Source: a virus (Duplodnaviria; Caudoviricetes). From it: a stretch of 29,092 nucleotides of DNA. Under the pieces are notes generated by a model. It searched no databases and was not told the DNA's origin. It worked only from the letters and a program-made list of their open reading frames with translations. Every line of letters starts with the position of its first letter. Position 1 is the stretch's first letter. The position numbers were made by a program, and so were the translations under genes. Location of the stretch: the IMG/VR virus record IMGVR_UViG_3300025084_000149, positions 1 through 29,092 of that record. One strand, 5' to 3'. Positions 8,281 to 29,092 of the stretch are shown in pieces.

Positions 8281-10898
8281 AATGTTGTTTCAAATAAATC
8301 TGTATCAAATGCTCCAAACTCGTCTCCGTCAATATCGTAAATAGCTCTTACAGAAAATTTATAAGTTGTATCACTGTCTAGCTGTGTTCGAGTTTTAGTT
8401 GTTGGGTCTCCAGAGGGAACGGTCGTGTCTAGTTCTCCATCTAAGTATATTTGATATTCTACAAAATTACTGTCAGTTATTGCGTCCCATTCATAACTAA
8501 TACTTGAACTTGTTGTACCTGTTGATACTAAATTCTCAACCCTTTGTAAATCCTGTCTTTGACCGTTCAAACTTTGCGATGTGTTTGTTTGTAAGTTATA
8601 TAATTCTAAGTCACTTTTATTTGTTAATAAATTTGTCTTTATAGAGTTTATTCTATATTCCGTTGTACCTATGATAAATATATCGTTTAGTCTATAATTT
8701 AAAATTACATTCAAAGGCAAGTAAGCAGATACATTTGTTTTTCTTGAATTTCTAGCAAATAGATTAGCTACATAATTTCTATAATATTTAGTATATAAAT
8801 CATTTGAAGAGGTTTGTGTTGAGCTTCCTGTTCCTTGCGTGTACTCATCTACTTCAATCCCAAAATTTACTGTTTGATTTATAAACCCTGTTGAAATATT
8901 AACTATTGCGTTTGACGGTCTGTAATATCTAACTAAATTGCTAAATGTATCGTTTAGATTATCAAACTTTATAACATCACTTGTTTCAGTCCATATTGGA
9001 TAAAATAATAAAGGGTCGCCTATTGTTGGTTCAAACTTTTTATCTAACATAGCACCCTGTTGAACATCTGTTAAAGTGTTTGTTGAACTCTCATCACTTA
9101 ATCTCTCGTACATCATTTTCTCAAAACCAACCTCAACCTTGTAATCGCTTCCGTCATATTGCTCTGATGTAAAACTTTCTTCTGCAAACTTATTGCCTTG
9201 CAATTCGTCTGAATACTGTACTAAATACGATTTTTTGCTTTTAAACTTAAATATCATATTTTTAAATTGTAGTAACTTAGATACAGTTTTTTTGCTAGTA
9301 TCTACATATTCCGTAATATCGTAAACCTTGCCAGCGTTATAATAATCGTCTAAAGGTAATACCGTTATAACTCCGTCCTCTTTATATGCAGTTAAATTAA
9401 ACATAGTAAATAGGTTTTTTAGAAAATCAAATATTTTCATTTTAGGCATTTGCCTACTTATATCTACTATATTTGCGGCTGTTGGTGCTGCGGCTTCATA
9501 AAACCCTGTCGCTTCTATTGTTTTGCTTCCACTACCATTATTAAAAATCCTTCTAACCTCCAATTCTTGTGATATAAGTAAAGTGTTTTCAGCTATTATA
9601 ATAATTTTTAAATCTATATACCCTTCCCCCCAGTCTTGTGGGTTAATTGTAACAAGGTCAAGAGTTTGGTTTCCGCTCCCCTGTCTTTCAGCAAAAAGGC
9701 TATTATTCGAAAGCCTCCTAAATTCAACAGTATAACTTTGACCGCCAGGAGCATTAACAGTTAAAAAAAAGTCATACTCTCTATACGTCCCGTTGCCAAA
9801 AGGAGTGTTATAAGGGTTCATTTCTGGGTCGGCTGGTCTTATTTCTGTTCCACTGTCTAAATCATATTCTAAACCAGCAGTAGCTGCACTTCCTGTAAAC
9901 CAAGTTTTAACTATGCTAGTAACCTCCCCACCCTCTTCTGCATTACTCATAAACCCCTCTTCTCTATGAAGCCATAAGTATAACTTTTTAAAATTAAAAC
10001 TGTTAAAAAAAGTGTTACTGAATTTTATCTGTGGGTAATTACTTTCTATCGCATCAATTATGACCTTAGCTCTTAATGCTGGTTTTATATCTGCATAGTT
10101 TAAAAATGTATTTGTAATAGCGTCTTTATATCCAGCGTTACCGTTATATCCGTATCTCATATTCTTACTATGAGTAATTAAAGGAAATAGCAAATCGTGG
10201 TCTGGGTCTGTAATTGCTACTGATGAGCCTAAACGAGTTTGGACAAAACTGCTTGTATATTCAAAATCTAAAGTATCTGGAAATTGTAAAGAGCTTAATT
10301 CATTTTCTGCTAGTATTTTTTTGAACTCAACCGTTTCGCCTGTAAAGACTAGTTTATAAGAATATGCTACATTGTTTTTTAAATCAACAGATGTAAGTTT
10401 GAATGAGCCTTTTTTGTAATTAGTTCCGTTTAACTGAATAAGTGCATCGCCTTGAAATCTTGCGTCAAAACTGTTTACTACTTCACTATTGTAATAATGC
10501 TTAAAGAATTTATTATTATGCTTAGAGGCTGGTACGCTAAACTGTTGGCTAAACGGTGCAAATATCTTAGCAGGGTCTTTTACATTTTGGATAGTATCTG
10601 TAATTGAAACGCTCTCGTCTTTAAATAATTCAAGCTTTGTGAAGTCATTATATATTTGGTATCTTTTACCACTTCCAGAAAATACACCTCCTGTGATATC
10701 TAGTGTATCTGTTCCGCTTGGTGCTATTGCAGTAATAGTCCCCTCAACCCCACTGTCAAGGTCAAGTATTATTTGCCCTACTTTAAATAGTCCGTTTGTA
10801 AAATCTGTTGAAGTGTCTACAAGTCTTGTTTGTGTAGGAAAGTAACCAACGCTAGTATATTTAAAAGCATCTCTTATATATAAGTCTATTATCTGCAT
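8277..10898 (-). CDS. Tail tip/baseplate hub protein with C-terminal fibronectin type III domain
   Basis: 873 aa; FSQQFSVPASKHN and MPKMKIFDFLKNLFTMFNL hub-like segments; FN3 pattern (SISYEWD...YQIY...LDSDTTYKFSVRA). Confidence 0.75.
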   Translation of the reverse strand: MQIIDLYIRDAFKYTSVGYFPTQTRLVDTSTDFTNGLFKVGQIILDLDSGVEGTITAIAPSGTDTLDITGGVFSGSGKRYQIYNDFTKLELFKDESVSITDTIQNVKDPAKIFAPFSQQFSVPASKHNNKFFKHYYNSEVVNSFDARFQGDALIQLNGTNYKKGSFKLTSVDLKNNVAYSYKLVFTGETVEFKKILAENELSSLQFPDTLDFEYTSSFVQTRLGSSVAITDPDHDLLFPLITHSKNMRYGYNGNAGYKDAITNTFLNYADIKPALRAKVIIDAIESNYPQIKFSNTFFNSFNFKKLYLWLHREEGFMSNAEEGGEVTSIVKTWFTGSAATAGLEYDLDSGTEIRPADPEMNPYNTPFGNGTYREYDFFLTVNAPGGQSYTVEFRRLSNNSLFAERQGSGNQTLDLVTINPQDWGEGYIDLKIIIIAENTLLISQELEVRRIFNNGSGSKTIEATGFYEAAAPTAANIVDISRQMPKMKIFDFLKNLFTMFNLTAYKEDGVITVLPLDDYYNAGKVYDITEYVDTSKKTVSKLLQFKNMIFKFKSKKSYLVQYSDELQGNKFAEESFTSEQYDGSDYKVEVGFEKMMYERLSDESSTNTLTDVQQGAMLDKKFEPTIGDPLLFYPIWTETSDVIKFDNLNDTFSNLVRYYRPSNAIVNISTGFINQTVNFGIEVDEYTQGTGSSTQTSSNDLYTKYYRNYVANLFARNSRKTNVSAYLPLNVILNYRLNDIFIIGTTEYRINSIKTNLLTNKSDLELYNLQTNTSQSLNGQRQDLQRVENLVSTGTTSSSISYEWDAITDSNFVEYQIYLDGELDTTVPSGDPTTKTRTQLDSDTTYKFSVRAIYDIDGDEFGAFDTDLFETTL

Positions 10899-13276: not shown

Positions 13277-13752
13277 AAAAAAACAATAGCACCAAATACT
13301 GCATCTAGAGGATAGTTCTTAGCATCTTCGTTTGTGTCTGGGTTGTATTCTTTAAGCGTGTATCTTTGCCCTTGCTTTAAATCAATTGGTCTATATAAAA
13401 CATTCATAGCTCTATGCAAGTTATCGTTATCGCCTATAAACGTATCTAAGTCCACATATTCGCCAAAACTCATATTTTCTAAGTCTGGTATAAAACCGTA
13501 ATCAATACCATTCATTTGAAACCTATTTATAAGCTGATGTTCTGTATCAAACATATTATTTATAATAACACAAATATCTGTTATATCTTTTGCTTTCATT
13601 GAACGTACAACCTCGACAGGCACTTTACAGAATATCTCAATCATCTTAGATTGCACCTCTGCTTCCTTAGTTAAATCTAATTTATCAAACTCTTGGTATT
13701 GCCCTAGAGTTATTTCATTTAATGTTGTTGGTATGCTTAACTTAACTTTCAT
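13108..13752 (-). CDS. Tail assembly chaperone (G product), putative
   Basis: 214 aa with slippery GTT TTT TTT TAC at codons 157-160. Confidence 0.7.
   Translation of the reverse strand: MKVKLSIPTTLNEITLGQYQEFDKLDLTKEAEVQSKMIEIFCKVPVEVVRSMKAKDITDICVIINNMFDTEHQLINRFQMNGIDYGFIPDLENMSFGEYVDLDTFIGDNDNLHRAMNVLYRPIDLKQGQRYTLKEYNPDTNEDAKNYPLDAVFGAIVFFYNLGKDLSTVILNSSSKQNEESLAQFLASQPNGAGTIQSMQSLTEILRDLKISLN
13275..13283 (-). other. Slippery site T TTT TTT for -1 ribosomal frameshift
   Basis: Nine T on the coding strand, fitting the X XXY YYZ pattern. Confidence 0.78.
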
Positions 13753-13787: not shown

Positions 13788-14996
13788 CTAAGATACAGTA
13801 TATTTACCTCTATTTGGGTTTTGCAGTTGAAAGCCTACTGCATAACGAACCGCATCTATTAAATGATTGTATTTGTCGATTGGTGTATTTGATTTGCGTT
13901 CTAACCAGCGATAGTTATTTAATTCCTTAATTAAGTTAGTGCTATCTGGACTTACTATAATATCATAGTCTTGTAATAAGCTTATGCCATAAGTAACGCT
14001 TCCTTGCCCTTTTATACTTGGGCGTACGTTACAACCCTTTGCTTTTATTTCGCTTAGTAGTCTAGGCTCTGCACTATCCCCAACGATTAAACCCTCTCTA
14101 GCGTGTTTTAAATTAAGTTGTGCTATTTGTGACGTTGTTAGTCTTTGTAAGTAGAAACATTCTTTTAAATATATTCGTTTGTTAGAACTGTCGATATTGA
14201 CTTCAACCAATGTACTTGGGTCTGCTGCGAAACCATAATCTTGACCCCATACACTTACACTTGTTTTTCTAAACTCACCTACACTCCAATTATTAAATAT
14301 AACGCCCTCAGCTTTATTTAGCCACGCTCCTAACATTTGTTGTTTGTATTTCTCTGGGCGTCTTACCTTCATTTGCTCTATTTGGTCTATATAGCTTTTA
14401 GATAAGTTCTTTATGTTGTCCTGGTAGGTTGTGTGTATGTAAGTTGTATTTTCTTTTGTTGTATTGCTGCCCTCTTGAACGCCTCTGTCCTCAAAGAAAC
14501 GTCTATATATAAAATGCTCTTTTGTTGTTGGGTTAAGTATTAATATAATTCTGTTTGGTTTGCCTTGCTGCCTTACTGATAAATCAATAGTGTCAAACTT
14601 TTGTTCATCAACTAGTTCTTCAGCTTCATCAACCACCCACGTTGTAATACCTTGTAAAGATTTAAGGTTTGCAGTCTGGTCACCGCTTGAGGTTTTAATC
14701 CCCCTGAATATTATTTTGCTTCCTGTCTTTTTGTTTAGTATCTCATCTTTGGTTATGTGAAAGTCTGCTATTGAGCCGAACTGTTCTAGCTTGTCTATAA
14801 ACTCTGGAATGATTGATATATAAGCTGAGGTTAATGTGTAGCGTGTAAACAGTATCGTATGACCTTGTTCGTATGTCAGCATCACTAAAAGGGCGTTTAC
14901 TGAAAAAGATTTCCCAGAACCACGCCCACCACTAACAATAAAATACCTACTGTCGCTATCAACAATAGGCATATATTTCTTTTTTACTTTAATCAA
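13788..14996 (-). CDS. terL: Terminase large subunit (PBSX/SPP1-like)
   Basis: Walker A GGRGSGKS, Walker B WVVDEAEE, LNP coupling motif, nuclease motifs DYGF, DSAEP and NHLIDAVRY. Confidence 0.96.
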   Translation of the reverse strand: MIKVKKKYMPIVDSDSRYFIVSGGRGSGKSFSVNALLVMLTYEQGHTILFTRYTLTSAYISIIPEFIDKLEQFGSIADFHITKDEILNKKTGSKIIFRGIKTSSGDQTANLKSLQGITTWVVDEAEELVDEQKFDTIDLSVRQQGKPNRIILILNPTTKEHFIYRRFFEDRGVQEGSNTTKENTTYIHTTYQDNIKNLSKSYIDQIEQMKVRRPEKYKQQMLGAWLNKAEGVIFNNWSVGEFRKTSVSVWGQDYGFAADPSTLVEVNIDSSNKRIYLKECFYLQRLTTSQIAQLNLKHAREGLIVGDSAEPRLLSEIKAKGCNVRPSIKGQGSVTYGISLLQDYDIIVSPDSTNLIKELNNYRWLERKSNTPIDKYNHLIDAVRYAVGFQLQNPNRGKYTVS

Positions 14997-15258: not shown

Positions 15259-15285
15259 ATTGAAATAAATTGTTTAATCAATCCT

Positions 15286-15317
15286 ATTAATATATAAACA
15301 GAATTACTTTTTTTTAG
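15286..15317 (-). promoter_or_regulatory. Putative late promoter upstream of terS
   Basis: ctaaaaaaaagtaattctgtttatatattaat, ending 27 nt before the ATG. Confidence 0.6.
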
Positions 15318-15964
15318 AACATTCTTATTTGTGCTTTGTGCTGCTCTATTCTTTTTATAGCTGCATTGTAGTAGTCTTTGTCTAATTCACAAGCTGTTAA
15401 ATCATATCCTAGATTATGACAGGCTAAGGCAATAGAGCCACTACCTAAATGTGTATCAAGTATTTTATCTCCCTCTTTTGCGTAATTCATTAAAAGCCAT
15501 TCATATAATTGTATAGGTTTTTGTGTTGGGTGTATTCTATCAACTTTATATTTCTTTTTAAATCCTGCCCACAAATGGTCGTACATATTACATTTTCTAT
15601 CAAAGGAAGTCCACGCAAGTTCAGCCATAGATAAATGTTCTTTTATATCTACTTTTTTATTCCATACTATCCAACCTTTAGAAGGTGGTAAATATTCAGT
15701 AAAGTAATTACCACCCCATATAATTTGTTTTTTTGATACTCTTTTAAGCTGCTCAAAGTATTCTTTTGTTGGTGGCTTACTATCATCAAAAGTTTTGTAA
15801 TGTTGACTTTTTGGGTTTTTCCATTTTTCGGTTGGTCTATCTCCTGTTACATTTCTTTGCCCTTTTTCGTTTATCCCATAAGGTGGGTCTACTATTGCTA
15901 AATCAAAGTAGTTATCCGCATACCTAGCCATTAGTTCCATATTGTCCTCGTTGGTTATTAGCAT
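15314..15964 (-). CDS. DNA N6-adenine/N4-cytosine methyltransferase (beta class), orphan
   Basis: DPPY catalytic motif, HPTQKP, then ILDTHLGSGS SAM-binding motif. Confidence 0.93.
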   Translation of the reverse strand: MLITNEDNMELMARYADNYFDLAIVDPPYGINEKGQRNVTGDRPTEKWKNPKSQHYKTFDDSKPPTKEYFEQLKRVSKKQIIWGGNYFTEYLPPSKGWIVWNKKVDIKEHLSMAELAWTSFDRKCNMYDHLWAGFKKKYKVDRIHPTQKPIQLYEWLLMNYAKEGDKILDTHLGSGSIALACHNLGYDLTACELDKDYYNAAIKRIEQHKAQIRMF

Positions 15965-16470
15965 AGCACAGGGTTTTTAACTTTCTTGTTTAGTGCAGCA
16001 CCTTTTATTTCTGGTATTGTCTTACGCTTTACTCTAGTCTTTATTAATGCGTTAAAGGGGTCTAGTCGTGTTTGTTTAAATTCTGTTACTGTTTCTATAT
16101 CCCAGCCTGTTAAGATGTCTATAACGTCTTGTATTTCTTTTATTGTTTTGTTTGTTTTTATTTCTTTTTTTATTTTGTCTTGTTCTGAATTAAAGAATGG
16201 CTTTGATAATACTAGTCCTAGTTCCCTTATTATTTGGTCGTGTTTCTTTTTATCTTCAAGACCTATTACGTTTATACTATTAACGTGGTGCAGTATATTG
16301 CAGTGACTTTTTTTAATTACATCGCCCACCTCTCTAAATGTAGCACCGCTTTCGTAAGCTAGTTTGCTAAATACCTTTTTAGCATAAGAGTAATTTCTTT
16401 GCCTTGTATCTAAGGATATATCTAAATTGAATTTTTTATCTACTGCTTTTTTTATTGTTTCTAATTTCAT
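15958..16470 (-). CDS. DnaA domain IV-like helix-turn-helix DNA-binding protein
   Basis: TRQRNYSYAKKVFSKLA...ATFREVGDVIKKSHCNILHH resembles the DnaA C-terminal R-x-R...IG..F.RDH.TV.H pattern. Confidence 0.65.
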   Translation of the reverse strand: MKLETIKKAVDKKFNLDISLDTRQRNYSYAKKVFSKLAYESGATFREVGDVIKKSHCNILHHVNSINVIGLEDKKKHDQIIRELGLVLSKPFFNSEQDKIKKEIKTNKTIKEIQDVIDILTGWDIETVTEFKQTRLDPFNALIKTRVKRKTIPEIKGAALNKKVKNPVLC

Positions 16471-16478
16471 ATTTATTT

Positions 16479-16625
16479 TTAGTTAAATTCTGCGTGTTCT
16501 AAACACTCACTACAAAGGTTTTCATTTAATTGACTAGGTTCTGCATTACAACAATCCGAACCTATGTGTTCTTCTGTATGTGGGTTGTCTATTGCGTATT
16601 GTATTATTTGTTTTGGTGTTTTCAT
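16479..16625 (-). CDS. Small Cys-rich (Zn-binding?) protein, 48 aa (not in ORF track)
   Basis: MKTPKQIIQY...SDCCNA...LCSECLEHAEFN; fills the gap between neighbours. Confidence 0.7.
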   Translation of the reverse strand: MKTPKQIIQYAIDNPHTEEHIGSDCCNAEPSQLNENLCSECLEHAEFN

Positions 16626-16630
16626 TTTGT

Positions 16631-16765
16631 CTATATTTTATTGTCTATAACTTCTATTAAGTGTCTAAGGTCTGAGCGTTCCCATTCTCCTAGCTTAACT
16701 CCATTAATATTAAATTTAAAATAATCTTTTCTGTCGGTTTTTTCTATTTCTATATTTATATACAT
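16631..16765 (-). CDS. Small hypothetical protein, 44 aa (not in ORF track)
   Basis: MYINIEIEKTDRKDYFKFNINGVKLGEWERSDLRHLIEVIDNKI; starts 1 nt after the upstream stop. Confidence 0.7.
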   Translation of the reverse strand: MYINIEIEKTDRKDYFKFNINGVKLGEWERSDLRHLIEVIDNKI

Positions 16766-16766
16766 A

Positions 16767-17216
16767 TTAATCTATTTTAGTAAATTCTGCTATTTGGTTT
16801 TTATTATGTTCTTCTTTGTTTTGAAAGTAGTTATCTACTAGTGCGTCAATCATTACTAGCTCATCAATACTAGCTGTTTTTATTTTGTGCATTAAGCTGT
16901 CTATTTTGTTTAGCACGTTGGTACACATTTCAGGGTTGTTATGGTACACTGTATTAAACCCTTCTTGATATATTCGCTCTAGTATCTTTGATGTTTTATT
17001 TACTTGTAGCTTTACGTTCTGCTTAAACCCTACGCTTCCTTTTAAATCATCGTTTGCTTCTAGTAGTAATTGACTTATCAATACGCATTTTAAATAGCTT
17101 AGGTGTCTATGTGTTATTTGTTCTACTGGCTCATCATAAACCCCTCTTACTTGTTCTTGATGTTCTAGTTCTTTTTGTTCCATTCTTTCGTAGTATTCTT
17201 TTTGTTCTTTTCTCAT
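16767..17216 (-). CDS. Hypothetical protein
   Basis: ORF track; start moved to the ATG at 17216, which forms an ATGA overlap with the upstream gene. Confidence 0.75.
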   Translation of the reverse strand: MRKEQKEYYERMEQKELEHQEQVRGVYDEPVEQITHRHLSYLKCVLISQLLLEANDDLKGSVGFKQNVKLQVNKTSKILERIYQEGFNTVYHNNPEMCTNVLNKIDSLMHKIKTASIDELVMIDALVDNYFQNKEEHNKNQIAEFTKID

Positions 17217-17443
17217 TTGTTTTTTTCTATCCATTGTTGTTGTTGCTCTCTTAAGTATTCTATCTCACGTCTTAAATAATCTGCTGCTTTTTCTAAGTCT
17301 TTTAACTCATCGTCTTTTTTACCGCTTCTGCAAATATACTTAATTATATTCCCCCTATTGAAGTTTAGTTCGTAATCTTTTATAAAGTCTATAACGTCAT
17401 AGCCTTTTCCGTTTTCGTAATGTAAATAAGTTGCTCGTTTCAT
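17213..17443 (-). CDS. DUF3310 / SaV-like (T7 gp1.7-like) protein
   Basis: HY...DVIDFI...FNRGNIIKYICRSGKK...DLEKAADYL motif. Confidence 0.88.
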   Translation of the reverse strand: MKRATYLHYENGKGYDVIDFIKDYELNFNRGNIIKYICRSGKKDDELKDLEKAADYLRREIEYLREQQQQWIEKNK

Positions 17444-17449
17444 AATATT

Positions 17450-17662
17450 TTATCTTTTACTACCATTAATTTTTCTTTTTTTTGCTGGTGGGTTACCTCT
17501 TGTCGGTGCTATCTTTGACCTTATATTTGTTCTACTATAATAGTTTGTTTGTTTCTGTTCGTCACAAGGTATAAATTTAACTTTATCTTTTTCACTGCTT
17601 AGCTCTGTTAAATTAACCCACTTACCTTTTATTTTTCTCCATATATCTTTTTTGTCTTTCAT
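17450..17662 (-). CDS. Basic hypothetical protein
   Basis: 70-aa ORF with an A-rich leader (aaaacaaaaacaaaatt-ATG). Confidence 0.65.
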   Translation of the reverse strand: MKDKKDIWRKIKGKWVNLTELSSEKDKVKFIPCDEQKQTNYYSRTNIRSKIAPTRGNPPAKKRKINGSKR

Positions 17663-17677
17663 AATTTTGTTTTTGTT

Positions 17678-17800
17678 TTATAGTAATGCTAATATTCTTA
17701 AATCTTCTTGTATGTCTTTAATCATTTTTAAAGCGTCTTTATAGTCTTGGTTTTCCATTGCTTCAATAACTATGTCTAGGTCATATACAAATCTAATCAT
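17678..17800 (-). CDS. Small hypothetical protein, 40 aa (not in ORF track)
   Basis: MIRFVYDLDIVIEAMENQDYKDALKMIKDIQEDLRILALL; overlaps the exonuclease stop. Confidence 0.7.
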   Translation of the reverse strand: MIRFVYDLDIVIEAMENQDYKDALKMIKDIQEDLRILALL

Positions 17801-18509
17801 TTGTTCTTAGTTTTAATAAGTGATAGCACTCTACAAATTTTTGACGTGCTTTGCCTTTGTATTCTTGTTTAAATAATTCATACATCTTTTTTGTGTATTG
17901 GTATTTAGTGTCGCATTCAGCTAAGTATTTTTCTGAAAACTTTTTTCCTTTACCTTTAAAATAGTTTACGTTGTCGGCAGTATCTCCAATTATCATTTGC
18001 TCATAAAAGTTATATAAAGCCTCGTCCTCACTTATATCTAAAACCTCTTTATGTTTATAGTGATAGTTATAAATTTTGGCTGGAAATTGTCGGTAGTCTT
18101 TATCGATTGAAACTATCATAACATTGTCACGCCCTAGTTCGTTTGACAGTTCGTACCAATATCTAGCAACCATATCATCAGTTTCTATACCATAACCCCA
18201 AACGCTGTCGTATTGGTCTTTAACGTATTGGTGCATCTCATCTAATAAAGGTGGTAACTCTTGCTTTTTTCTATTGGCTTTGTAGTCGCTTGTAATTAGC
18301 TTTCTAAAATTGCCTTTACTACCGCTGAACGTTATTACTTTTTCAACAGGGTACATATCTTCAAGCTTATTGACTATGCTCATAAATTGCTCATCAAACT
18401 TCGCTTGTGCCTCTTCTATATCTCGATAGTATTTGTCATCTTCTGGGTTCTCTCGTTTTTTATAACAAGCTGCGAAGATTAAACTATCTGCATCTACTAG
18501 TAGTATCAT
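17793..18509 (-). CDS. 5'-3' exonuclease / flap endonuclease (T7 gp6 / T5 D15-like)
   Basis: LLVDAD, NFRK...YKANR, ETDD, SIDKDYRQ and GDTADN motifs. Confidence 0.93.
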   Translation of the reverse strand: MILLVDADSLIFAACYKKRENPEDDKYYRDIEEAQAKFDEQFMSIVNKLEDMYPVEKVITFSGSKGNFRKLITSDYKANRKKQELPPLLDEMHQYVKDQYDSVWGYGIETDDMVARYWYELSNELGRDNVMIVSIDKDYRQFPAKIYNYHYKHKEVLDISEDEALYNFYEQMIIGDTADNVNYFKGKGKKFSEKYLAECDTKYQYTKKMYELFKQEYKGKARQKFVECYHLLKLRTND

Positions 18510-18628
18510 TCTATATCTAAATTAAAGCATTCAATTGAACAGTAATAATCGCCATTTGTTTCAGAACCGCAACAAGCGCATTCAGTCTTTGTATCTGGTT
18601 CATCTATATAACTATCTAACCAACTCAT
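18506..18628 (-). CDS. Small zinc-ribbon protein, 40 aa (not in ORF track)
   Basis: CACC...YCSIEC; ATGA overlaps at both ends. Confidence 0.78.
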   Translation of the reverse strand: MSWLDSYIDEPDTKTECACCGSETNGDYYCSIECFNLDIE

Positions 18629-18900
18629 ATATCGTATTGTTTTAAATCGTTTTGTAATTTTTCTATTTGTTCTTTAAGCTGTATTAACTGCTTATTTTTT
18701 TCTTCTCGTATTAAACTTATACGTCTTGTTAATACTGTATTTTCAACGTTTAAACCGTTTACATATTGACCTATTTCTGTCATTCCTTGCACTATGTTTT
18801 TTAAGTCTGTATTGGCTGGTTTCTCTTTACTCCATTGCATAATTAAATTAGCTATGTGGTTAAACCATAAATTATAAGACTGTTTTTGTAGTGGTGTCAT
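18625..18900 (-). CDS. Hypothetical coiled-coil protein
   Basis: 91-aa ORF coupled to both neighbours. Confidence 0.75.
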   Translation of the reverse strand: MTPLQKQSYNLWFNHIANLIMQWSKEKPANTDLKNIVQGMTEIGQYVNGLNVENTVLTRRISLIREEKNKQLIQLKEQIEKLQNDLKQYDI

Positions 18901-19088
18901 TATATCTTAGAACCTATAATTAAACCAAAAGTAAAAATTAAAATTCCTAAAAGTAGAATACTTCCTGTTATTACAAGATTTCTATATTCTTGTTGTTTAC
19001 GTTCTTTTTCTTGTAACTCTTTTTTGGTGTAAACCTCAATGCGATTTTTTCTAGTTTCAATGTGTAGTCCTGTCTTTGTCTTTTTCAT
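18900..19088 (-). CDS. Small membrane protein
   Basis: Basic N-terminus and a C-terminal hydrophobic helix (LVITGSILLLGILIFTFGLII). Confidence 0.75.
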   Translation of the reverse strand: MKKTKTGLHIETRKNRIEVYTKKELQEKERKQQEYRNLVITGSILLLGILIFTFGLIIGSKI

Positions 19089-19104
19089 AATGTTTTGTTT
19101 TAAT

Positions 19105-19130
19105 GGGGGTTTTTACACCCCCTTTGTTTT
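19105..19130. terminator. Hairpin GGGGGT-GTAAAA-ACCCCC; U-tract only in the + orientation
   Basis: 6-bp GC-rich stem followed by TTTGTTTT on the + strand. Confidence 0.6.
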
Positions 19131-19133
19131 ATT

Positions 19134-19364
19134 TTATATTTCACAGTCTAAGTGATAAGATGTTAAACCATTAGGATATTCACCTAACCATATTAATTCT
19201 TTTTTCTCTAAAGAACCTATCACGCCTTTAAGTTGATTTTTAGTACCATTAAAAGCACTTGCAATTTCATCAAAACACTCCGTAGGTGTTTCCTCGTAAT
19301 CATCACCCCAAGAGATAATTGTTAGTACTTCTTTTTCTAATTGTGTTAAATTTGCAGTTGTCAT
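19134..19364 (-). CDS. Winged helix-turn-helix protein, putative (76 aa)
   Basis: LTQLEKEVL...FDEIASAFNGTKNQLKGVIGSLEKKELI; ATG at 19364 preferred to the track's TTG start. Confidence 0.65.
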   Translation of the reverse strand: MTTANLTQLEKEVLTIISWGDDYEETPTECFDEIASAFNGTKNQLKGVIGSLEKKELIWLGEYPNGLTSYHLDCEI

Positions 19365-19393
19365 AATATTTGTTTTTGTGTTATTAATATACC

Positions 19394-19435
19394 GCAATAT
19401 ACAACTTTATTTTAGTTATAAACATATTATTAACT
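19394..19435 (-). promoter_or_regulatory. Host-type early promoter (TATATTGC) with upstream tandem 9-mers
   Basis: Variant of the Bacteroidota -7 element TAnnTTTG at 19394-19401; TTATAAACA at 19416-19424 and TTATTAACT at 19427-19435 (+ strand). Confidence 0.55.
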
Positions 19436-19906
19436 ATTTTTTTTATTTATTTTTTCTTTTATATCAAAATAGCTATCCCAAATACCAATCTCTAGTTCTT
19501 CATTTAAGTTAATTATTGCAGCATCTTTTTCTTCTAACAAGTAACAAGGCTTTAATATTTTCTTTTTAGTCCAAAGCGTTGTATCAGGACAATACATATC
19601 TTTTGTTTGTAAGTCTTTTAAATTATTTAGCCAGAACATATAATTGCCTTTAGGGTCGTTTACTAAATACAGTGCCACCTTACCTGTTTCAATTAGTTTG
19701 TCGTACTTAAATTTTTCTATTATTTTGGTGTCATAGTATTTATTTCTAAACTTCATTTCGATAACGCATTCTTGACTTTTGGGTTTGGGAGTTGTGCCTA
19801 TTGCGTCCCAGCTTTCCATTCCGTCACCTGTATGTTTTAAGTTCCAACCGTCTAGGTTTAAAAGTGTTACTACTGCTTTTTCCCAGTTATGTATTTTATT
19901 TATCAT
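19430..19906 (-). CDS. PD-(D/E)xK-fold nuclease-like protein
   Basis: E...WDAIG...VIEMKFR motif. Confidence 0.6.
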   Translation of the reverse strand: MINKIHNWEKAVVTLLNLDGWNLKHTGDGMESWDAIGTTPKPKSQECVIEMKFRNKYYDTKIIEKFKYDKLIETGKVALYLVNDPKGNYMFWLNNLKDLQTKDMYCPDTTLWTKKKILKPCYLLEEKDAAIINLNEELEIGIWDSYFDIKEKINKKNS

Positions 19907-20102
19907 TTAATTTGTTATATATATTATCAATATCTTTTATCCACATTACTAATGTTTTAGGTCGGCAACTGCAAGGTTCGTGATACCTGTGGTTTAAATA
20001 ACGAGCGTGGAGCGTACATAAAAGCCTGTACTGGTCTTTTGTTAGCTTAGTAGTTACATTTGCTTTAAAATCAACCCACGCTTCTTGGTCATCTATTCTC
20101 AT
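19896..20102 (-). CDS. Hypothetical protein with HEPCSC motif (68 aa)
   Basis: Start placed at the ATG at 20102 (ATGA overlap with the upstream small gene). Confidence 0.72.
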   Translation of the reverse strand: MRIDDQEAWVDFKANVTTKLTKDQYRLLCTLHARYLNHRYHEPCSCRPKTLVMWIKDIDNIYNKLNDK

Positions 20103-20242
20103 AGCTCTATATTTATATCGTTCCAGTCGTTTCGCCTTTGGTCGCAACCGCAGTCTTTACCTAGTGCTTTGCTAATCTTTTTTACTAACCAATGAATGCC
20201 AGTGTAATAAGTAATGTAATAAACTAAATCTCCTAATCTCAT
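20099..20242 (-). CDS. Small protein with DCGC motif, 47 aa (not in ORF track)
   Basis: MRLGDLVYYITYYTGIHWLVKKISKALGKDCGCDQRRNDWNDINIEL; ATGA overlaps at both ends. Confidence 0.8.
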   Translation of the reverse strand: MRLGDLVYYITYYTGIHWLVKKISKALGKDCGCDQRRNDWNDINIEL

Positions 20243-20634
20243 AAGTTAAATTTTTTAATTTTCCATAATTTACTAAATCCTTTTAAAGTGTCTTTTAGTG
20301 TTATTTCTGTTTTAGCGTTTTTCCATTGTTTATCTATGTAGATACTTTCTACATTGCATTCGCTTAACGGTATATCTTTATCATCATTTTTAAAATTATG
20401 AGTAACGAATAAAACAACAGATTTTTTAGTATGCCAAGCGTTTGATATTCTCTCTAAAACAAGTCTTTGTCCTGTTGGTATTTTGTTTCCTTTACGCTTA
20501 ACTTCCATTAAAATAAGAACCTCATTATTAAATTCTAAAACAACATCAATATCGGTAGGGTGTATCTTGCCGCTTTGAATACCTGTAAAATCAATACTTT
20601 GTCTAACTTGTTTAGTGTTTCTAATTAAACTCAT
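20239..20634 (-). CDS. PD-(D/E)xK / VRR-NUC-like nuclease
   Basis: PTDID...LMEVKRKG...TGQR motif. Confidence 0.65.
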   Translation of the reverse strand: MSLIRNTKQVRQSIDFTGIQSGKIHPTDIDVVLEFNNEVLILMEVKRKGNKIPTGQRLVLERISNAWHTKKSVVLFVTHNFKNDDKDIPLSECNVESIYIDKQWKNAKTEITLKDTLKGFSKLWKIKKFNL

Positions 20635-21122
20635 AGCTTGTTCTTTATATGTTTCTTTGCGTTTGTATATGTATTGTAAAGTGAGTAATAACTTATTTTA
20701 GTGTTTCTGCTTAACTCTGCAACGCTTACGCCCTTAGCGACTATCTCAAATATTTTCTTATCGTACCAATACATTTCGTTTAATATGCTGTCTATATGGT
20801 CACGTTGCTTTGCCCATTCAACCTCATCTATTCCGCTTTCTTGTATTTCTTTTAATTCGTTAATGTCGTTTAAATAAACCTTTTTTTGTCTTAGGCTTGA
20901 CTTGTATAAATTTGTATAAATACCCCTTAGAACTTTATAGCAGTAGTAATGATTAATCTGGTCTTTATAGTAAAGGTCTAAACCTTTTTTGACATCAGCA
21001 TCTAATTGGATATACATCTCCATTACAACGTCCTCGCTCATTGAGGGGTTGCAACCGAAACTCTTTACTATGTTATTCCAGTCGCTATGCTTTTTATATG
21101 CTAGTTCTAAAATTGGTGTCAT
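20631..21122 (-). CDS. Phage sigma-70/ECF-like RNA polymerase sigma factor
   Basis: Region-2-like SEDVVMEMYIQL and region-4 HTH (YDKKIFEIVAKGVSVAELSRNTKISYYSL); 163 aa. Confidence 0.8.
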   Translation of the reverse strand: MTPILELAYKKHSDWNNIVKSFGCNPSMSEDVVMEMYIQLDADVKKGLDLYYKDQINHYYCYKVLRGIYTNLYKSSLRQKKVYLNDINELKEIQESGIDEVEWAKQRDHIDSILNEMYWYDKKIFEIVAKGVSVAELSRNTKISYYSLYNTYTNAKKHIKNKL

Positions 21123-21131
21123 TTATTTATT

Positions 21132-21980
21132 TTATAAGCCACAATAACCACTGTCGCATTCGTTAAAGTCATCATCAAATAATTCTGTTTGTTTAAAACT
21201 GTTTTTTATTTGTTTATAGTTAATTCCGTTTTTAAAGGTTCTAACATTATATCCTGTTTGTTGTTCTGCTTCTATAAACCAATTAAATTTATTTGGGTGC
21301 TTATCACTCATTAACTTGAGTAACACTTCGTTTCTATGAAAACAACCTACGCAATTATTCATATAAGCAAACCTAACGTTTTTACCTTTCCAGAATGTTT
21401 CTATTTGGTCTTTATATATATTATCTTTTATTAATGGAAATACAGGTTTTTGCCATTCTATATCTGCCCATTTGTTTTGTGTTTTTCTTTTACCTACAAT
21501 AGTTTTCATTTCTAAAAAACCATTTTCATTTGTTTTATTTAACATTGTTTTTGCTCTATTTTGTTCGTTTGCCCTAAATCCTATACGCATATTAACAACT
21601 TCATTTATTTTATTTTGCCACCAATTAAAAATTGGTTTTAATTTCATTTCAGTTGTGCAAAATCTTATTGTTGCATTTGGTAAATATTTTTTACCATTTC
21701 TATCAATAACCTTGTCAAAAGTCTTACCAGTTACCCAGTCGATTTTACTACCTATAAATTGTTCTAAATCTAACATTGTGTATATGATAGTATCTTCTTC
21801 TAATGTACCTATAAATTCAGTGCCTAACTTATCACTAACTTGTTGTCTTATTTTAGCATCTGGGAACATACATTTTTTATCATCTGTTCTAACTAAAGAA
21901 AATACATTATAATCTGCTGGGTAATTAGCTGCTATATAACTTGATGTTTTACCACCGCTTAAACTGTTTACCGTTTTCAT
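21132..21980 (-). CDS. PAPS-reductase-like / adenine nucleotide alpha-hydrolase (PP-loop) protein
   Basis: SLSGGKTS PP-loop, RFCTTEMK, IGFRANE, NCVGCF and terminal CDSGYCG motifs. Confidence 0.82.
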   Translation of the reverse strand: MKTVNSLSGGKTSSYIAANYPADYNVFSLVRTDDKKCMFPDAKIRQQVSDKLGTEFIGTLEEDTIIYTMLDLEQFIGSKIDWVTGKTFDKVIDRNGKKYLPNATIRFCTTEMKLKPIFNWWQNKINEVVNMRIGFRANEQNRAKTMLNKTNENGFLEMKTIVGKRKTQNKWADIEWQKPVFPLIKDNIYKDQIETFWKGKNVRFAYMNNCVGCFHRNEVLLKLMSDKHPNKFNWFIEAEQQTGYNVRTFKNGINYKQIKNSFKQTELFDDDFNECDSGYCGL

Positions 21981-22849
21981 TGTGTCGTTGTTTTAGTTAG
22001 TGTTCTAGGTACAAAGTATTCTAATGGGTCGTATATTTCGCCAACTACAAAAGGCAATCCAAACTCATTAATACTAAAGCTAAACGTTTCAAAGGCGTAA
22101 CCCCTAGAACGTTTGCAGCTTACTGTTATCCATTCTTTATTTACTGTATTTACTTCAAGTTGTATTTGTGTTTCTGTCTTTTTTTCAAGGAACGAACCTA
22201 AATGTCCTGTTGGCTTGTCGCTTCCATAATTACTATGTATTACCGTTACTATATGGCAATCATATTTTGCAGATAGTTGCATTATTTTTTGAACGCATAA
22301 ATTACTTTCTTCTAAATTATTAACGTCCGAAACTAAATCAGCAATTCCGTCTATAATAAGCAAACCGTTTTTATCTTTGTTTTGTTCTAAACAGTGTTCT
22401 ATAAATTGTAACCGTTCTTTATATCCTACCGTTCTTAGTGCGTATGTATGATAACAACCAACTTCTTTTGTGTTACTCATATCTTGAACACGCTTAAAAA
22501 CTCGTTGAGCGTGCCAATGTCCTTGTTCTGTATCAAAGTGCATTAAACAACGTCCGTCACGATGCCCTTTTATTTTACCCCCAAAGTTATTGCCACCACT
22601 TAAATAAACCGAAGCTAGTAATGATACAAAAAATGTCTTTTTACTTTTTGGCGGTGCTTGTACGAAACTAAAATTTCCATAAGTTCCAATAGGAATAGGC
22701 ATTGTTATCTCGCCACCTTTTGCTTGTATAGTTTTTTCCCCTAAACTTAATGCTGTTGGTGGATATTCCATAACTGCTGCTGTGTCGATAGTGCATTCTT
22801 CTGCAATCAACTCCATTAACATATTATGCGTAGTTTGTTCTTCTGTCAT
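21977..22849 (-). CDS. RecA/DnaB-like (SF4, AAA_25-type) helicase
   Basis: Atypical Walker A APPKSKKT, FDTEQ, Walker B LLIIDGIAD, VIH and GHLGS motifs. Confidence 0.82.
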   Translation of the reverse strand: MTEEQTTHNMLMELIAEECTIDTAAVMEYPPTALSLGEKTIQAKGGEITMPIPIGTYGNFSFVQAPPKSKKTFFVSLLASVYLSGGNNFGGKIKGHRDGRCLMHFDTEQGHWHAQRVFKRVQDMSNTKEVGCYHTYALRTVGYKERLQFIEHCLEQNKDKNGLLIIDGIADLVSDVNNLEESNLCVQKIMQLSAKYDCHIVTVIHSNYGSDKPTGHLGSFLEKKTETQIQLEVNTVNKEWITVSCKRSRGYAFETFSFSINEFGLPFVVGEIYDPLEYFVPRTLTKTTTQ

Positions 22850-22866
22850 ATTATTGTATTGTTTTG

Positions 22867-22874
22867 TAAAGGTA
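22867..22874 (-). promoter_or_regulatory. Possible host-type promoter -7 element (TACCTTTA)
   Basis: One mismatch from TAnnTTTG; sits between a terminator and the helicase start. Confidence 0.45.
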
Positions 22875-22876
22875 AT

Positions 22877-22901
22877 AAAAAAGGCGGTTATTACACCGCC
22901 C
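22877..22901 (-). terminator. Intrinsic terminator after ssb
   Basis: GGCGGT-GTAATA-ACCGCC followed by T6. Confidence 0.85.
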
Positions 22902-22908
22902 TAGTTAG

Positions 22909-23208
22909 TTAAAATGGTAAGTCGCTTGTTTCAGCTTCTTGTACTATTTCTTTAGCTTCTTCACGTTCAGCCTTGACAATGTTACCGTCAGTCCAAACTA
23001 CTTGACCGTTGCCAATGTAAGTTCTTGGCTTCTTAGCTTCACGTTCTTCTTGTGTTTGGCTAATCATAATCGATGCGTTATTTCCGTAACGTGTCTCGTC
23101 ATTTACTGACATTGTAAGGTTAACATAAACCGCACCGTCTTTTCCAGCAATAAATTTCTCCTTAGGGAGCTTATCTACTCTTAAACTATAATTGATAATT
23201 GCACTCAT
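22909..23208 (-). CDS. ssb: Single-stranded DNA-binding protein, putative
   Basis: 99 aa, beta-rich, acidic tail ending in DLPF, between annealase and helicase genes. Confidence 0.75.
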   Translation of the reverse strand: MSAIINYSLRVDKLPKEKFIAGKDGAVYVNLTMSVNDETRYGNNASIMISQTQEEREAKKPRTYIGNGQVVWTDGNIVKAEREEAKEIVQEAETSDLPF

Positions 23209-23232
23209 AATTTTACTTGTTTTTAATTGTTA

Positions 23233-23625
23233 TTATTTATTATTATTTTTAAAACTTTCGCTTTCATCTTCTCCAAAAACTCCCTGTTCGTAAAAGCCTG
23301 TTAATTTAAGCACCGCCCTTGACATTGCTCGTTTCTCCGCCATTTCAGCAACGTACCAACTATTTGTCGAACTGTCTTTATAGTTTTCGCCTTTTAAAGC
23401 ACTGCCAAAGGTTTCTATTGTTGCAGCTCCTTTATGTGCTACTGCTTTAAATACTGCAAAATTCGGTTCGCATCTTACAACTTCATAATTGATTGTAATA
23501 TTACTTTGTGCCATTAATTTTTCTATACCGCTTCTGGTGATGATTAAATAATGTTGATGTTTAAATACATCGTCTTTAGTTAAATTATACTCTTTGTATA
23601 ACTCTGTTAATTTTTCTTTGTTCAT
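23233..23625 (-). CDS. Single-strand annealing protein (Rad52/Sak-like fold), putative
   Basis: ETFGSA...MAEKRAMSRAVLKLTG motif; adjacent to ssb. Confidence 0.65.
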   Translation of the reverse strand: MNKEKLTELYKEYNLTKDDVFKHQHYLIITRSGIEKLMAQSNITINYEVVRCEPNFAVFKAVAHKGAATIETFGSALKGENYKDSSTNSWYVAEMAEKRAMSRAVLKLTGFYEQGVFGEDESESFKNNNK

Positions 23626-23626
23626 A

Positions 23627-23755
23627 TTAATTGTTTTTGATTTCTATTTGTGCTTCTAAAAATTCTACTCTTTTTTCTAATGCTTCTATTCTAGCATTTA
23701 AGTAGTCTATTGTATCTGGACTTGAACTTCTTTTTACATCTTCTGAATAAGTCAT
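23627..23755 (-). CDS. Small coiled-coil protein, 42 aa (not in ORF track)
   Basis: MTYSEDVKRSSSPDTIDYLNARIEALEKRVEFLEAQIEIKNN; 1-nt gaps to both neighbours. Confidence 0.78.
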   Translation of the reverse strand: MTYSEDVKRSSSPDTIDYLNARIEALEKRVEFLEAQIEIKNN

Positions 23756-23756
23756 A

Positions 23757-23957
23757 TTAAATCTCTTTAAATAATTGATACGGACTATCCACGTCTAATA
23801 AAAATTTTAAATCTAAAACTAAACTATAAGGAATATCTCCTACATATTCATAGTTTTCTAATCTGTCAATAGTAAACCCAACTAAATCAGGGTGTTTAAT
23901 GTTTTCTAAATCCAGGTTTTCACCGTACTCGGGTTTTAATCTTTCTAATAAATTCAT
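23757..23957 (-). CDS. Hypothetical early protein
   Basis: 66 aa, leader aaacaatacatt-ATG. Confidence 0.75.
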   Translation of the reverse strand: MNLLERLKPEYGENLDLENIKHPDLVGFTIDRLENYEYVGDIPYSLVLDLKFLLDVDSPYQLFKEI

Positions 23958-24209
23958 AATGTATTGTTTATAATTTTAAAATAAATGTTCTAAATCAAAA
24001 GCAGTTGATAACTCGTCCATAGCATCTTCTATTAAACTTATCGCAGTATCTATTGCATTCATTTTATCTTCGTGTATTTCACAGGCTTCACTTTCGTGCC
24101 ATTTTTCTGAACGCTCGTCCATTGCCCATTCCATTGCTTCTAGCTTTTCTTGTAGCTTTTCTTTTAAATTGTTTAGTTTTGTTAAATTTGCTTTCATAAT
24201 GTATTGTTT
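23953..24209. repeat. 17-bp direct repeat TTCATAATGTATTGTTT at 23953-23969 and 24193-24209
   Basis: Exact match spanning the leader and start codon of two consecutive early genes. Confidence 0.85.
23976..24197 (-). CDS. Acidic helical hypothetical early protein
   Basis: 73 aa, first gene after the TATATTTG promoter. Confidence 0.75.
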   Translation of the reverse strand: MKANLTKLNNLKEKLQEKLEAMEWAMDERSEKWHESEACEIHEDKMNAIDTAISLIEDAMDELSTAFDLEHLF

Positions 24210-24224
24210 TAATTAATATTAAGG

Positions 24225-24275
24225 CAAATATAAAACAAATAATTCAATAAAAAAAATATAAACACATTATAAACA
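24225..24275 (-). promoter_or_regulatory. Host-type early promoter (TATATTTG) with upstream tandem 9-mers
   Basis: Consensus Bacteroidota -7 element at 24225-24232; ATATAAACA at 24256-24264 and TTATAAACA at 24267-24275 (+ strand). Confidence 0.7.
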
Positions 24276-24300
24276 AAAAAACCACCCTTTTACAGGTGGC
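24275..24300 (-). terminator. Intrinsic terminator downstream of ninG
   Basis: GCCACCT-GTAAAA-GGGTGGT followed by T6. Confidence 0.85.
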
Positions 24301-24341
24301 TTAATTTGGCTGGTTAGCCTATTTTAAAACAAAAACAATAC
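24275..24341 (-). ncRNA. Candidate small regulatory RNA (~65 nt)
   Basis: TATCTTTG promoter element at 24346-24353; U-rich 5' segment, GGCT-AACC-AGCC hairpin and terminator; no start codon ATG. Confidence 0.4.
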
Positions 24342-24355
24342 TTTACAAAGATACA

Positions 24356-24751
24356 TTAAGTATCTAGTTCTTTAATTAACAATTCATATTTTTCTATTAA
24401 CATTTCTAAATCTGTATTATCTAGCTTAACAGTTTTATTTGCTTCAATATGTAGTTCTTCTGCTAAACCGTCATAATAAGTATTATCTAGGTTCTTAGAA
24501 AATTTATACTGTTCGCCATACCTAAATACATTACAACCAGCACATTGCACCTGGCAATTCTGTTCGGACCACCTAGTAGAATAGTGTTTACGACTTTGAA
24601 AATGTCCGTTTTGTAGCTTCTTCCAATGGTCTTGCTTACCACAAGTAAAACATTCGGCAATATCATTAACAGCAAATCTACGTCTTATATATATACTAAA
24701 AACTTTGTCTAATTTATCTACTAACTTTTTGCGTTTTGTTTTTTTTGCCAT
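24356..24751 (-). CDS. ninG: NinG/Rap-like recombination endonuclease
   Basis: FSIYIRRR, CFTCG, GHFQSR, TRW..N...QCAGCN motifs. Confidence 0.9.
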   Translation of the reverse strand: MAKKTKRKKLVDKLDKVFSIYIRRRFAVNDIAECFTCGKQDHWKKLQNGHFQSRKHYSTRWSEQNCQVQCAGCNVFRYGEQYKFSKNLDNTYYDGLAEELHIEANKTVKLDNTDLEMLIEKYELLIKELDT

Positions 24752-24875
24752 TTGATTAGTTCCCCTAAGTCTTATATTTTATTTAACTTTTTATATCTAT
24801 TTATTTTGTATTTGTTTTTTATGCCTTTAAGGGCAACAAAACATTTAACTAAATGTCTAGTTTTAATAAAAAATT

Positions 24876-24883
24876 CAAAGTTA
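24876..24883 (-). promoter_or_regulatory. Host-type promoter -7 element (TAACTTTG) upstream of ninG
   Basis: Matches TAnnTTTG in the largest intergenic region. Confidence 0.5.
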
Positions 24884-24914
24884 TATATTTTATTTTAGAA
24901 AAAAAAGCAAAAAC

Positions 24915-28447: not shown

Positions 28448-28944
28448 AAAACCCAACCGTTAAAAACCGTATCTGTATCTGGGCTAATATCGTCATTTGT
28501 GTTGCTTGTGTATTCTGGGAATTTAGATTGATTAAAACATAAATGGTCTACTAGTCTTGTACTGTAATAATTAGCGTATTCTCTAGCTTTACCTACTAAA
28601 TAATCAACTTCTGTTTTATTTACGTTTTCGGCTGTTTCGCTTGAATGTTTAAACACTCCACCGTTTTTGATTTGATAAGCAGCAAACGGAATATAATTAA
28701 CTTGTGCGAACCATATTAAGGTTGGCTGTATATAATCTTGAACAAGTGCTAAATAGTCGCCTGTTAAGGTACTGTTTTCAATATCTGTACTTATTCGGTT
28801 GTATAAATCCGTTCCTAGTAAGTTTTGAATGTCAATTTGCTGTCCGAGTTTCAGAAATTGTACTATTTTGTCATAATCAGTATTTCCGTCAATTATTGAA
28901 TTACGAACTAAATCGTTTCTTGTTATGAATAGTGCTGTTGCCAT
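28444..28944 (-). CDS. Head-tail adaptor protein, putative
   Basis: Helical 166 aa (IQNLLGTDLY, YIQPTL, FPEY); its ATG directly follows the portal stop across the circular junction. Confidence 0.7.
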   Translation of the reverse strand: MATALFITRNDLVRNSIIDGNTDYDKIVQFLKLGQQIDIQNLLGTDLYNRISTDIENSTLTGDYLALVQDYIQPTLIWFAQVNYIPFAAYQIKNGGVFKHSSETAENVNKTEVDYLVGKAREYANYYSTRLVDHLCFNQSKFPEYTSNTNDDISPDTDTVFNGWVL

Positions 28945-29092
28945 TTAGTTTTTGAATTTCATTTTGTTCCAATATTCAGCAGTATAACCTTTATACTTCA
29001 TATCCTTTGGTGCTACTGGTACTTTTTGAGCGTTTGGTCTGCCCTTTGGTTTAAAACCTCTTGACCTTGCCTCTGTTGTGGTTATTTCTGTG
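28943..29092. repeat. Terminal direct repeat, copy 2 (3' end of the portal gene)
   Basis: 149/150 identical to positions 1-150. Confidence 0.97.

Follow-up and report, generated by a model that had tools for sequence, protein, structure and literature searches.

The window, that is, the whole stretch of viral DNA analysed here (29,092 nt), carries a 150-nt direct repeat at its ends (99%; positions 1-150 and 28943-29092) and therefore probably represents a complete phage genome that is circular or terminally redundant. Its long ORFs lie on the minus strand, and the PHROGs names found among them are portal, capsid-like, terminase, endolysin, holin, and ninG. The nearest cultured relatives are the Nonlabens phages P12024L/S (terminase 56%, holin 62% over part of its length, capsid 30%), and NinG relatives of 60-61% are present on contigs from Lacinutrix and Wocania MAGs, which makes a host from the Flavobacteriaceae likely. 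The unit described below is located at the boundary between the lysis genes and ninG on one side and 25 small early and replication genes in a row on the other; the limits of the early region (15259-24300) were chosen by us from gene content. A TTATAT-rich motif was observed directly 5′ of the ATG codons at 13752, 6281, and 2188.

As listed in Table 1, ninG is followed by a -7 promoter box, a U/G-rich stretch that we call the seed, a small hairpin, and an intrinsic terminator. These elements, as well as the lack of any ATG within the unit, had been pointed out in the earlier note, and all of them were confirmed at their places on the minus strand. Transcription is predicted to start at about 24341, based on the spacing known from Flavobacterium johnsoniae, where transcripts begin 4-5 nt past the -7 box (PMC6847099), and the unit would then measure 67 nt from the start to the end of the terminator. 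The earlier note had raised as a caveat that no clear -33 element is present. Such an element is indeed absent, but this is no argument against a promoter, because the -33 element of F. johnsoniae is described as "much less evident" (PMC6847099). Since the ninG stop codon abuts the box, a ninG 3′ untranslated region would also include the seed.

Table 1. Features of the ninG-downstream unit and its target sites in the window
Feature	Position	Strand	Remarks
ninG/Rap junction endonuclease gene	24356..24751	-	phrog_5034, E=2e-26; anchor for finding relatives
-7 promoter box	24346..24353	-	TATCTTTG, Bacteroidota housekeeping type; two bases past ninG stop
5′ seed of predicted sRNA	24321..24341	-	U/G-rich, complementary to early start regions
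Small internal hairpin GGCU/AGCC	24308..24319	-	From single-sequence folds
Intrinsic terminator	24275..24302	-	9-bp stem plus U tract
Separate -7 box of first early operon	24225..24232	-	TATATTTG; downstream of terminator
Target site 1, 10 nt	24201..24210	-	-13 to -4 of ORF 24197
Target site 2, 9 nt	23961..23969	-	ORF 23957
Target site 3, 10 nt	23630..23639	-	ORF 23625; gene family has cognate excess
Target site 4, 10 nt	22856..22865	-	Before AAA_25 helicase-like gene 21977-22849
Target site 5, 10 nt	19370..19379	-	ATG at 19364
Target site 6, 11 nt	19093..19103	-	ORF 19088; just behind G5/C5 hairpin
Target site 7, 10 nt	18634..18643	-	Before ORF 18628; overlooked in the earlier note
Target site 8, 14 nt	17667..17680	-	ORF 17662

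A search of the window against Rfam gave no match at the gathering score and only chance-level matches at E≤5, and none of 50,697 phage records was matched by the region in blastn. RNAalifold on a MAFFT alignment of the units recovered the terminator alone, with two-sided changes in 2 of its 9 pairs, and missed the internal hairpin because the alignment shifts it. Inspection of the group sequences revealed this hairpin, with the stem variants GGCU/AGCC, GGUU/AACC, and GACU/AGUC, in the clade of the window and in a sister group, and its absence from most other groups. In the loci L015, L018, L020, L021, L023, and L025 the middle hairpin GGUUGUCAUAACC includes GUUGUCAUAA, which is complementary to starts reading UUAUGACAAC and is a possible second seed, an example of a target being ORF 19364 of the window. 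On the other side of ninG, a 163-nt gap without an ORF (24752-24914) contains a further -7 box (TAACTTTG, 24876-24883). This box was kept in the examples of groups G1-G3 that were viewed, the remainder of the gap being AT-rich and variable, and in several other clades the gap is occupied by a gene instead.

Perfect matches of at least 9 nt to the seed were found in 8 of 25 early start regions and in 1 of 26 late start regions of the window, the single late site (9 nt) being located before ORF 8149. All seven complementary sites named in the earlier note were exact, and its list was one short of the eight early sites. Enrichment at leaders relative to shuffled controls, which the note had proposed as a check, was evident: eight early matches were reached by none of 3000 mononucleotide and 3000 dinucleotide shuffles of the seed and by none of 2000 leader shuffles, the shuffle means being 1.0-1.6. 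When all 21-mers of the coding strand were scanned genome-wide, six or more early starts were matched only by those starting at 24338-24350, so that the seed is the best early-start-matching 21-mer on this strand; on the opposite strand, three 21-mers at 16139-16141 match 6-7 early starts. Seven of the 11 sites of at least 10 nt in the genome fall into start regions, which cover 4.4% of it. The caveat that the matches are of low complexity thus does not account for them, since no shuffle reached eight and no other coding-strand 21-mer did as well.

Upstream of the seed-matched leader of ORF 19088 we noticed a hairpin (GGGGGU-GUAAAA-ACCCCC, 19105-19122, minus strand; 53-nt fold of -13 kcal/mol) that lacks a U tract. 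Similar hairpins were found before 21 of 2239 early starts (20 loci), and a cognate match of at least 9 nt is present at 16 of these 21. By signalling processing or uncoupling, the hairpin may give rise to a start that is regulated separately.

Scanning viral contigs four times for NinG yielded 240 related loci, or 241 with the window. Nine that lacked a ninG stop codon plus 150 nt of downstream sequence were removed, and of the remaining 232 we left out 100 that were identical over a 210-nt key, so that 132 distinct loci were compared. The conservation in relatives that the earlier note had asked for was found throughout: a -7-like box just past ninG and a U/G-rich seed stretch after it were present in 132 of 132 loci, and a terminator in 130. 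The box had the strict TAnnTTTG form in 114 of 132 loci, compared with 36 strict boxes after 1599 other stop codons in the first 75 loci; G at -10/-9 occurred in only two of the 132 boxes, which fits the consensus TAHHTTTG. The box-seed-terminator arrangement was kept down to 57% NinG identity, with lengths of 48-85 nt from the predicted start to the terminator. A pattern search for the box with a window-type seed returned 38 copies, 37 of which adjoin ninG and one of which is located at a contig end. A conserved small ORF as the product of the unit was ruled out, because 85 of the 132 units contain no ATG. The unit thus has its own promoter and terminator and no conserved ORF, as is general for trans-acting sRNAs. 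Fourteen RNA runs were listed, 11 of them with shares of at most 0.13 and three, of unknown kind, with shares of 0.20-0.22. The sequences examined, from four runs, were assembled contigs of relatives, which carry no information on ends, strand, or level.

We then asked if seed and targets change together. Motifs defined by hand divided the 132 units into 13 seed groups. Start regions (-25 to +8, with start codons of relatives taken from a simple ORF caller) were then compared with the seeds of their own and of the other groups, a match being at least 9 nt. At 1,706 distinct distal early starts, the own seed matched in 13.4% and foreign seeds in 5.8%, a difference reached by none of 100,000 label permutations, whereas at 790 late starts the own seed (2.5%) did not exceed foreign seeds (3.9%, p=0.96). 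The cognate excess was 2.3-fold at offsets -25 to -1 and 1.9-fold at +3 to +28 (p=0.001), and no excess was seen at the control offsets +40 to +73, +80 to +113, and -70 to -37. In the relatives, pairing peaked at mRNA positions -13 to -5 and seed positions +1 to +13, and some seeds span the AUG itself (L241, L208, and L212). The result held with 8 or 10 groups, after similar groups had been dropped, and with one locus per group (p≤0.01 in 99 of 100 draws). The own seed ranked first for only 4 of the 13 target groups, since seeds that are long and U-rich find matches in many of them. In a NinG tree of 57 sequences with poorly resolved deep branches, seed groups largely followed clades, with several switches among related clades. 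Complementarity is thus kept by compensatory change at unlinked genes, another general property of trans-acting sRNAs, and the clades in effect represent natural compensatory mutants.

The targets are concentrated in operon-leading small genes, a 130-aa gene, and the helicase-like gene. Other families are avoided, including a 163-aa protein (20631-21122 in the window) that has members in all 13 groups (117 members) and 27% identity to P12024S gp33, annotated as sigma-70 region 2; judged by this similarity, it is likely a late-gene sigma factor. A median relative has two perfect distal sites among about 21 early ORFs, the clade of the window being at the high end, and 6 of 67 long loci have none.

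The strongest single test of the link between seed and target is the orthologue family of the AAA_25 helicase-like gene (21977-22849), which in the window lies 1.4 kb downstream of the unit and behind its own terminator. From 112 members we obtained 75 distinct starts; 37 were dropped either as duplicates or because they had no start behind a U tract. In two groups with leaders, 17 of 21 starts had a match of at least 9 nt, always in the leader and never within the coding sequence. Of the 54 starts in the other groups, 29 matched, and 28 of these 29 matches were inside the coding start, at about codons 2-8. In 33 of the 54 a -7 box is located 3-6 nt before the ATG, and these mRNAs are therefore predicted to be leaderless. 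The coding-start matches use the clade's own sequence, one clade encoding K-L-T at the site in agreement with its GUAAGUUUU seed. Part of the pattern may be due to a Q-T-E peptide that is conserved and has codons similar to several of the seeds. Neither this relocation of the site nor the AUG-spanning seeds are predicted by copying of a leader cassette, by folding in cis, or by a DNA operator.

A unit whose front end is complementary to eight early starts, and which changes together with them across relatives, likely encodes one down-regulating sRNA. From these sequence comparisons, which strongly support a real regulatory RNA candidate, we consider it probable that the conserved unit makes a 67-nt trans-acting antisense RNA that pairs with a subset of early mRNAs bearing a complementary address and lowers their translation. 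The host housekeeping polymerase would transcribe the unit from the -7 box from the onset of infection, and transcripts running through ninG, or late ones ending at the same terminator, could add seed-bearing RNA. Once accumulated, the RNA would cover the A-rich zone from -16 to -4 that Bacteroidota ribosomes use instead of a Shine-Dalgarno sequence or, on leaderless messages, codons 2-8. In F. johnsoniae, initiation is favoured by low structure and by adenines at -3, -6, -12, and -13 (PMC6847099), the positions that pairing would occlude. The expected outcome is a damping of operon-leading small early genes and of the replication helicase-like gene. Since the unit has the same type of promoter as the early genes, the RNA would accumulate alongside them and delay or restrain early and replication proteins as a built-in timer or brake, while the sigma-like gene and the late genes are without an address.

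Being rich in AU pairs, the predicted duplexes reach only -9.9 to -17.4 kcal/mol, with the accessibility cost left out, and are thus weak; in the seed variant of the window, positions 5-10 are predicted to pair with positions 17-22. Lowering the temperature from 37°C to 15°C reduces the probability that the first 16 nt are unpaired from a median of 0.83 to one of 0.73. Participation of a chaperone or a partial repression is therefore plausible.

Conservation, covariation, and site relocation thus bear out the core of the earlier note, a predicted trans-acting RNA aimed at the phage's own early starts, but not the reach that the note had given it. Silencing of the whole early regulon does not agree with the finding that most early genes have no site. 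The notion that late mRNAs escape because they are leaderless is rejected as the general cause on two grounds: a motif immediately 5′ of the ATG, assumed here to mark leaderless late promoters, occurs at only three late genes of the window and at 12 of 778 late starts in relatives, and early mRNAs predicted to be leaderless are still matched, in their first codons. Late genes would rather escape because they lack the address. Silencing of host mRNAs, also suggested there, is taken up below.

The same pairing could serve another purpose, namely immunity against superinfecting kin or maintenance of a dormant carrier state, with the seed types corresponding to immunity groups as for c4 in P1/P7. 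Seed types are clade-specific and match their own leaders, a host-type promoter would fire without phage proteins, and c4 heteroimmunity provides a precedent (PMC12197685). The genome looks complete, however, and no integrase, repressor, or antirepressor families were found among the ORFs scanned (30 with PHROGs and 30 with Pfam, jointly covering all 25 early ORFs); moreover, the early promoters would stay on. We therefore regard this purpose as unlikely, while noting that timing and exclusion of kin are indistinguishable by sequence alone.

It is improbable that the role of the seed is confined to the 3′ end of ninG or late transcripts, or to action in cis on the first early leader about 130 nt downstream, with the distant matches stemming from a leader cassette spread by recombination. 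This explanation would account for the adjacent early starts having the strongest cognate match (57% for the own seed versus 13% for foreign seeds at 107 starts), and read-through RNA folds the seed onto that leader in silico. It is opposed by the terminator (130 of 132 loci) and the separate promoter-like box, found with a loose pattern between the terminator and the next ATG in 123 of 125 loci, which both lie between seed and first leader, and by the conservation of the box before the seed. In 40 loci the adjacent leader has no match of at least 8 nt; the distal excess drops to 7.6% versus 4.8% in these loci, a decrease that favours action in cis, whereas the absence of an adjacent match there does not. 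Copying of leader cassettes also differs from what was observed at coding-start sites, which follow the seed.

Bacteroidota leaders are A-rich, and FopS, which has one homologue in a phage, targets host mRNAs (PMC11697453), so that the RNA might mainly be a factor for host shut-off or reprogramming and the phage leaders might merely share the leader dialect of the host. In a sample of about 300 kb from two Flavobacteriaceae MAGs, which may not be those of the host, the window seed matched 16 of 255 start regions; this rate of 6% is far below the 32% for phage early starts, and the addresses AAACAATAC, AAACAGAAC, and AAACAAAGA occurred in 0 of the 255 regions. These data speak against silencing of host mRNAs and make a main role in the host very improbable.

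Short repeated motifs near promoters are typical of operators, and a G-U wobble test with six core motifs did not discriminate between RNA and DNA. A reading without RNA pairing, in which the motif is either a neutral inverted copy or an operator bound by a phage protein on the DNA, is nevertheless extremely improbable: a single inverted copy is located at +1 of an otherwise empty transcription unit, and the placement of the sites goes with the ribosome footprint and orientation, not with promoters. The sites also shift into codons on leader loss, and in some cases they span the AUG.

Regarding known systems, the antisense RNA proposed here most resembles FopS of Bacteroides thetaiotaomicron, an sRNA that pairs next to the start codon and blocks translation (PMC11697453). 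Features shared with FopS/GibS are a housekeeping-sigma promoter, a single-stranded U/G-rich 5′ seed followed by an intrinsic terminator, and a start-codon-adjacent complementarity to multiple targets, the latter being predicted in our case (PMC11697453); the arrangement of a 5′ seed and terminator behind a -7 promoter is present in the window, whose seed variant is partly self-paired. The FopS family has 12-15 chromosomal copies, and its seed does not vary; it acts by repressing PUL mRNAs of the host and binds RbpB, one homologue being located in a Caudovirales phage (PMC11697453). In contrast, the unit of the window is phage-borne, its seed varies between clades together with the phage's own early genes, and only one box-seed-terminator unit exists on the coding strand. 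FopS-10 starts with GUGUUUUUCAUAG (PMC11697453), and the window seed does not contain the CAUAG of the FopS-10 5′ end. Neither a FopS/GibS seed nor membership in an Rfam family was found, in an Rfam copy that may lack a model of FopS.

The CI RNA of phage P4 is, like c4, a phage-encoded trans-acting antisense RNA. The c4 RNA of P1 and P7 blocks translation of a phage mRNA, with a specificity that differs between related phages (PMC12197685). It acts on an antirepressor mRNA of a temperate phage via structured loops (PMC12197685), whereas the window unit has a linear 5′ seed and several unlinked early genes as predicted targets. No match to the Rfam covariance models of c4 or CI was obtained, and the targets in the window are small unknown ORFs and the AAA_25 gene rather than an antirepressor operon. 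By the tests made, the window unit is not a member of the FopS or c4 families.

GcvB of enterobacteria silences ACA-containing translation enhancers upstream of start codons (PMC3879156); it also is a multi-target sRNA, and the addresses of the window phage are ACA-rich as well. GcvB differs in being a host sRNA that acts on amino-acid transport mRNAs with Shine-Dalgarno sequences (PMC3879156), and the window unit has no Rfam match. In phage T4, RegB and RegA each inactivate or repress many early mRNAs via a shared motif in the initiation region, which is thought to ease the transition from early to later stages (PMC3014915). These factors are proteins, a nuclease and a repressor (PMC3014915), whereas the reader of the window motif is a predicted RNA. 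We propose by analogy that the window unit works like FopS and GcvB and fills the role of RegB/RegA. SviR of the PLE satellite is a trans-acting sRNA that lowers translation of phage mRNAs, but it is satellite-encoded and directed against the helper phage ICP1 (bioRxiv 10.1101/2022.04.08.487710), whereas the window unit is phage-encoded and would act on the phage's own genes. For a lambda sRNA described in a preprint, the targets reportedly lie in the host or in another genome. In the literature covered, from which subscription journals were mostly absent, we found no description of a phage sRNA that is directed at the phage's own early genes through a tag evolving together with it. The motif could be listed in catalogues of candidate structured phage RNAs.

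The shut-off of early genes in lytic phages is understood in few systems, mostly via proteins, and no study of early-gene switch-off in Bacteroidota phages was found in the literature searched. Tentatively, and with more doubt than for the unit itself, we suggest that Bacteroidota phages run an RNA-only address system in which a tiny RNA and a co-evolving tag on early genes form an off switch, an RNA counterpart of T4 RegB; the type of tag would set which kin silence each other, and on leader loss the tag would enter the coding sequence and reshape the first residues. The unit also gives direct access to the question of how A-rich leaders and leaderless starts are read by ribosomes that are blind to Shine-Dalgarno sequences, and a reprogrammable repressor of 60 nt could serve as a tool for Bacteroidota.

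When the window was scanned generically for such units together with two MAG contigs and four cultured phages, 18 candidates were obtained. The units of the window (0/500 shuffles) and of L241 (2/500) were clear. Suggestive, without correction for multiple testing, were P12002S 14218-14309 (13/500), RAP44 47156-47217 (5/500), Harreka 16724-16808 (22/500), and an antisense-to-ORF unit of P12002S (39/500). The other 12 units, including those of P12024S and L242, were at 85/500 shuffles or more. In Nonlabens phage P12024S (L244), a unit consisting of a box, a U-rich stretch, and a terminator (10186-10244) is located right after the holin gene and begins with GUGUUUUU like FopS-10; its targeting was at chance, with 2 of 35 starts matched and 354 of 1000 shuffles reaching this number. 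The candidate at 14218-14309 of Polaribacter phage P12002S (L245) is a 92-nt intergenic box-seed-terminator unit among tail genes, whose UUUCAUUUUUU stretch is complementary to AAAAAUGAAA-type starts of many early-strand genes. It matches 26 of 54 early-strand starts compared with 4 of 32 others, a result reached by 17 of 1000 shuffles at 9 nt and weaker at 10-11 nt, and it could be tested in a cultured phage. In the temperate phage RAP44 (L268), an intergenic unit with box and terminator at 47156-47217 had eight start-region matches compared with 2.1 after shuffling (5/500, uncorrected).
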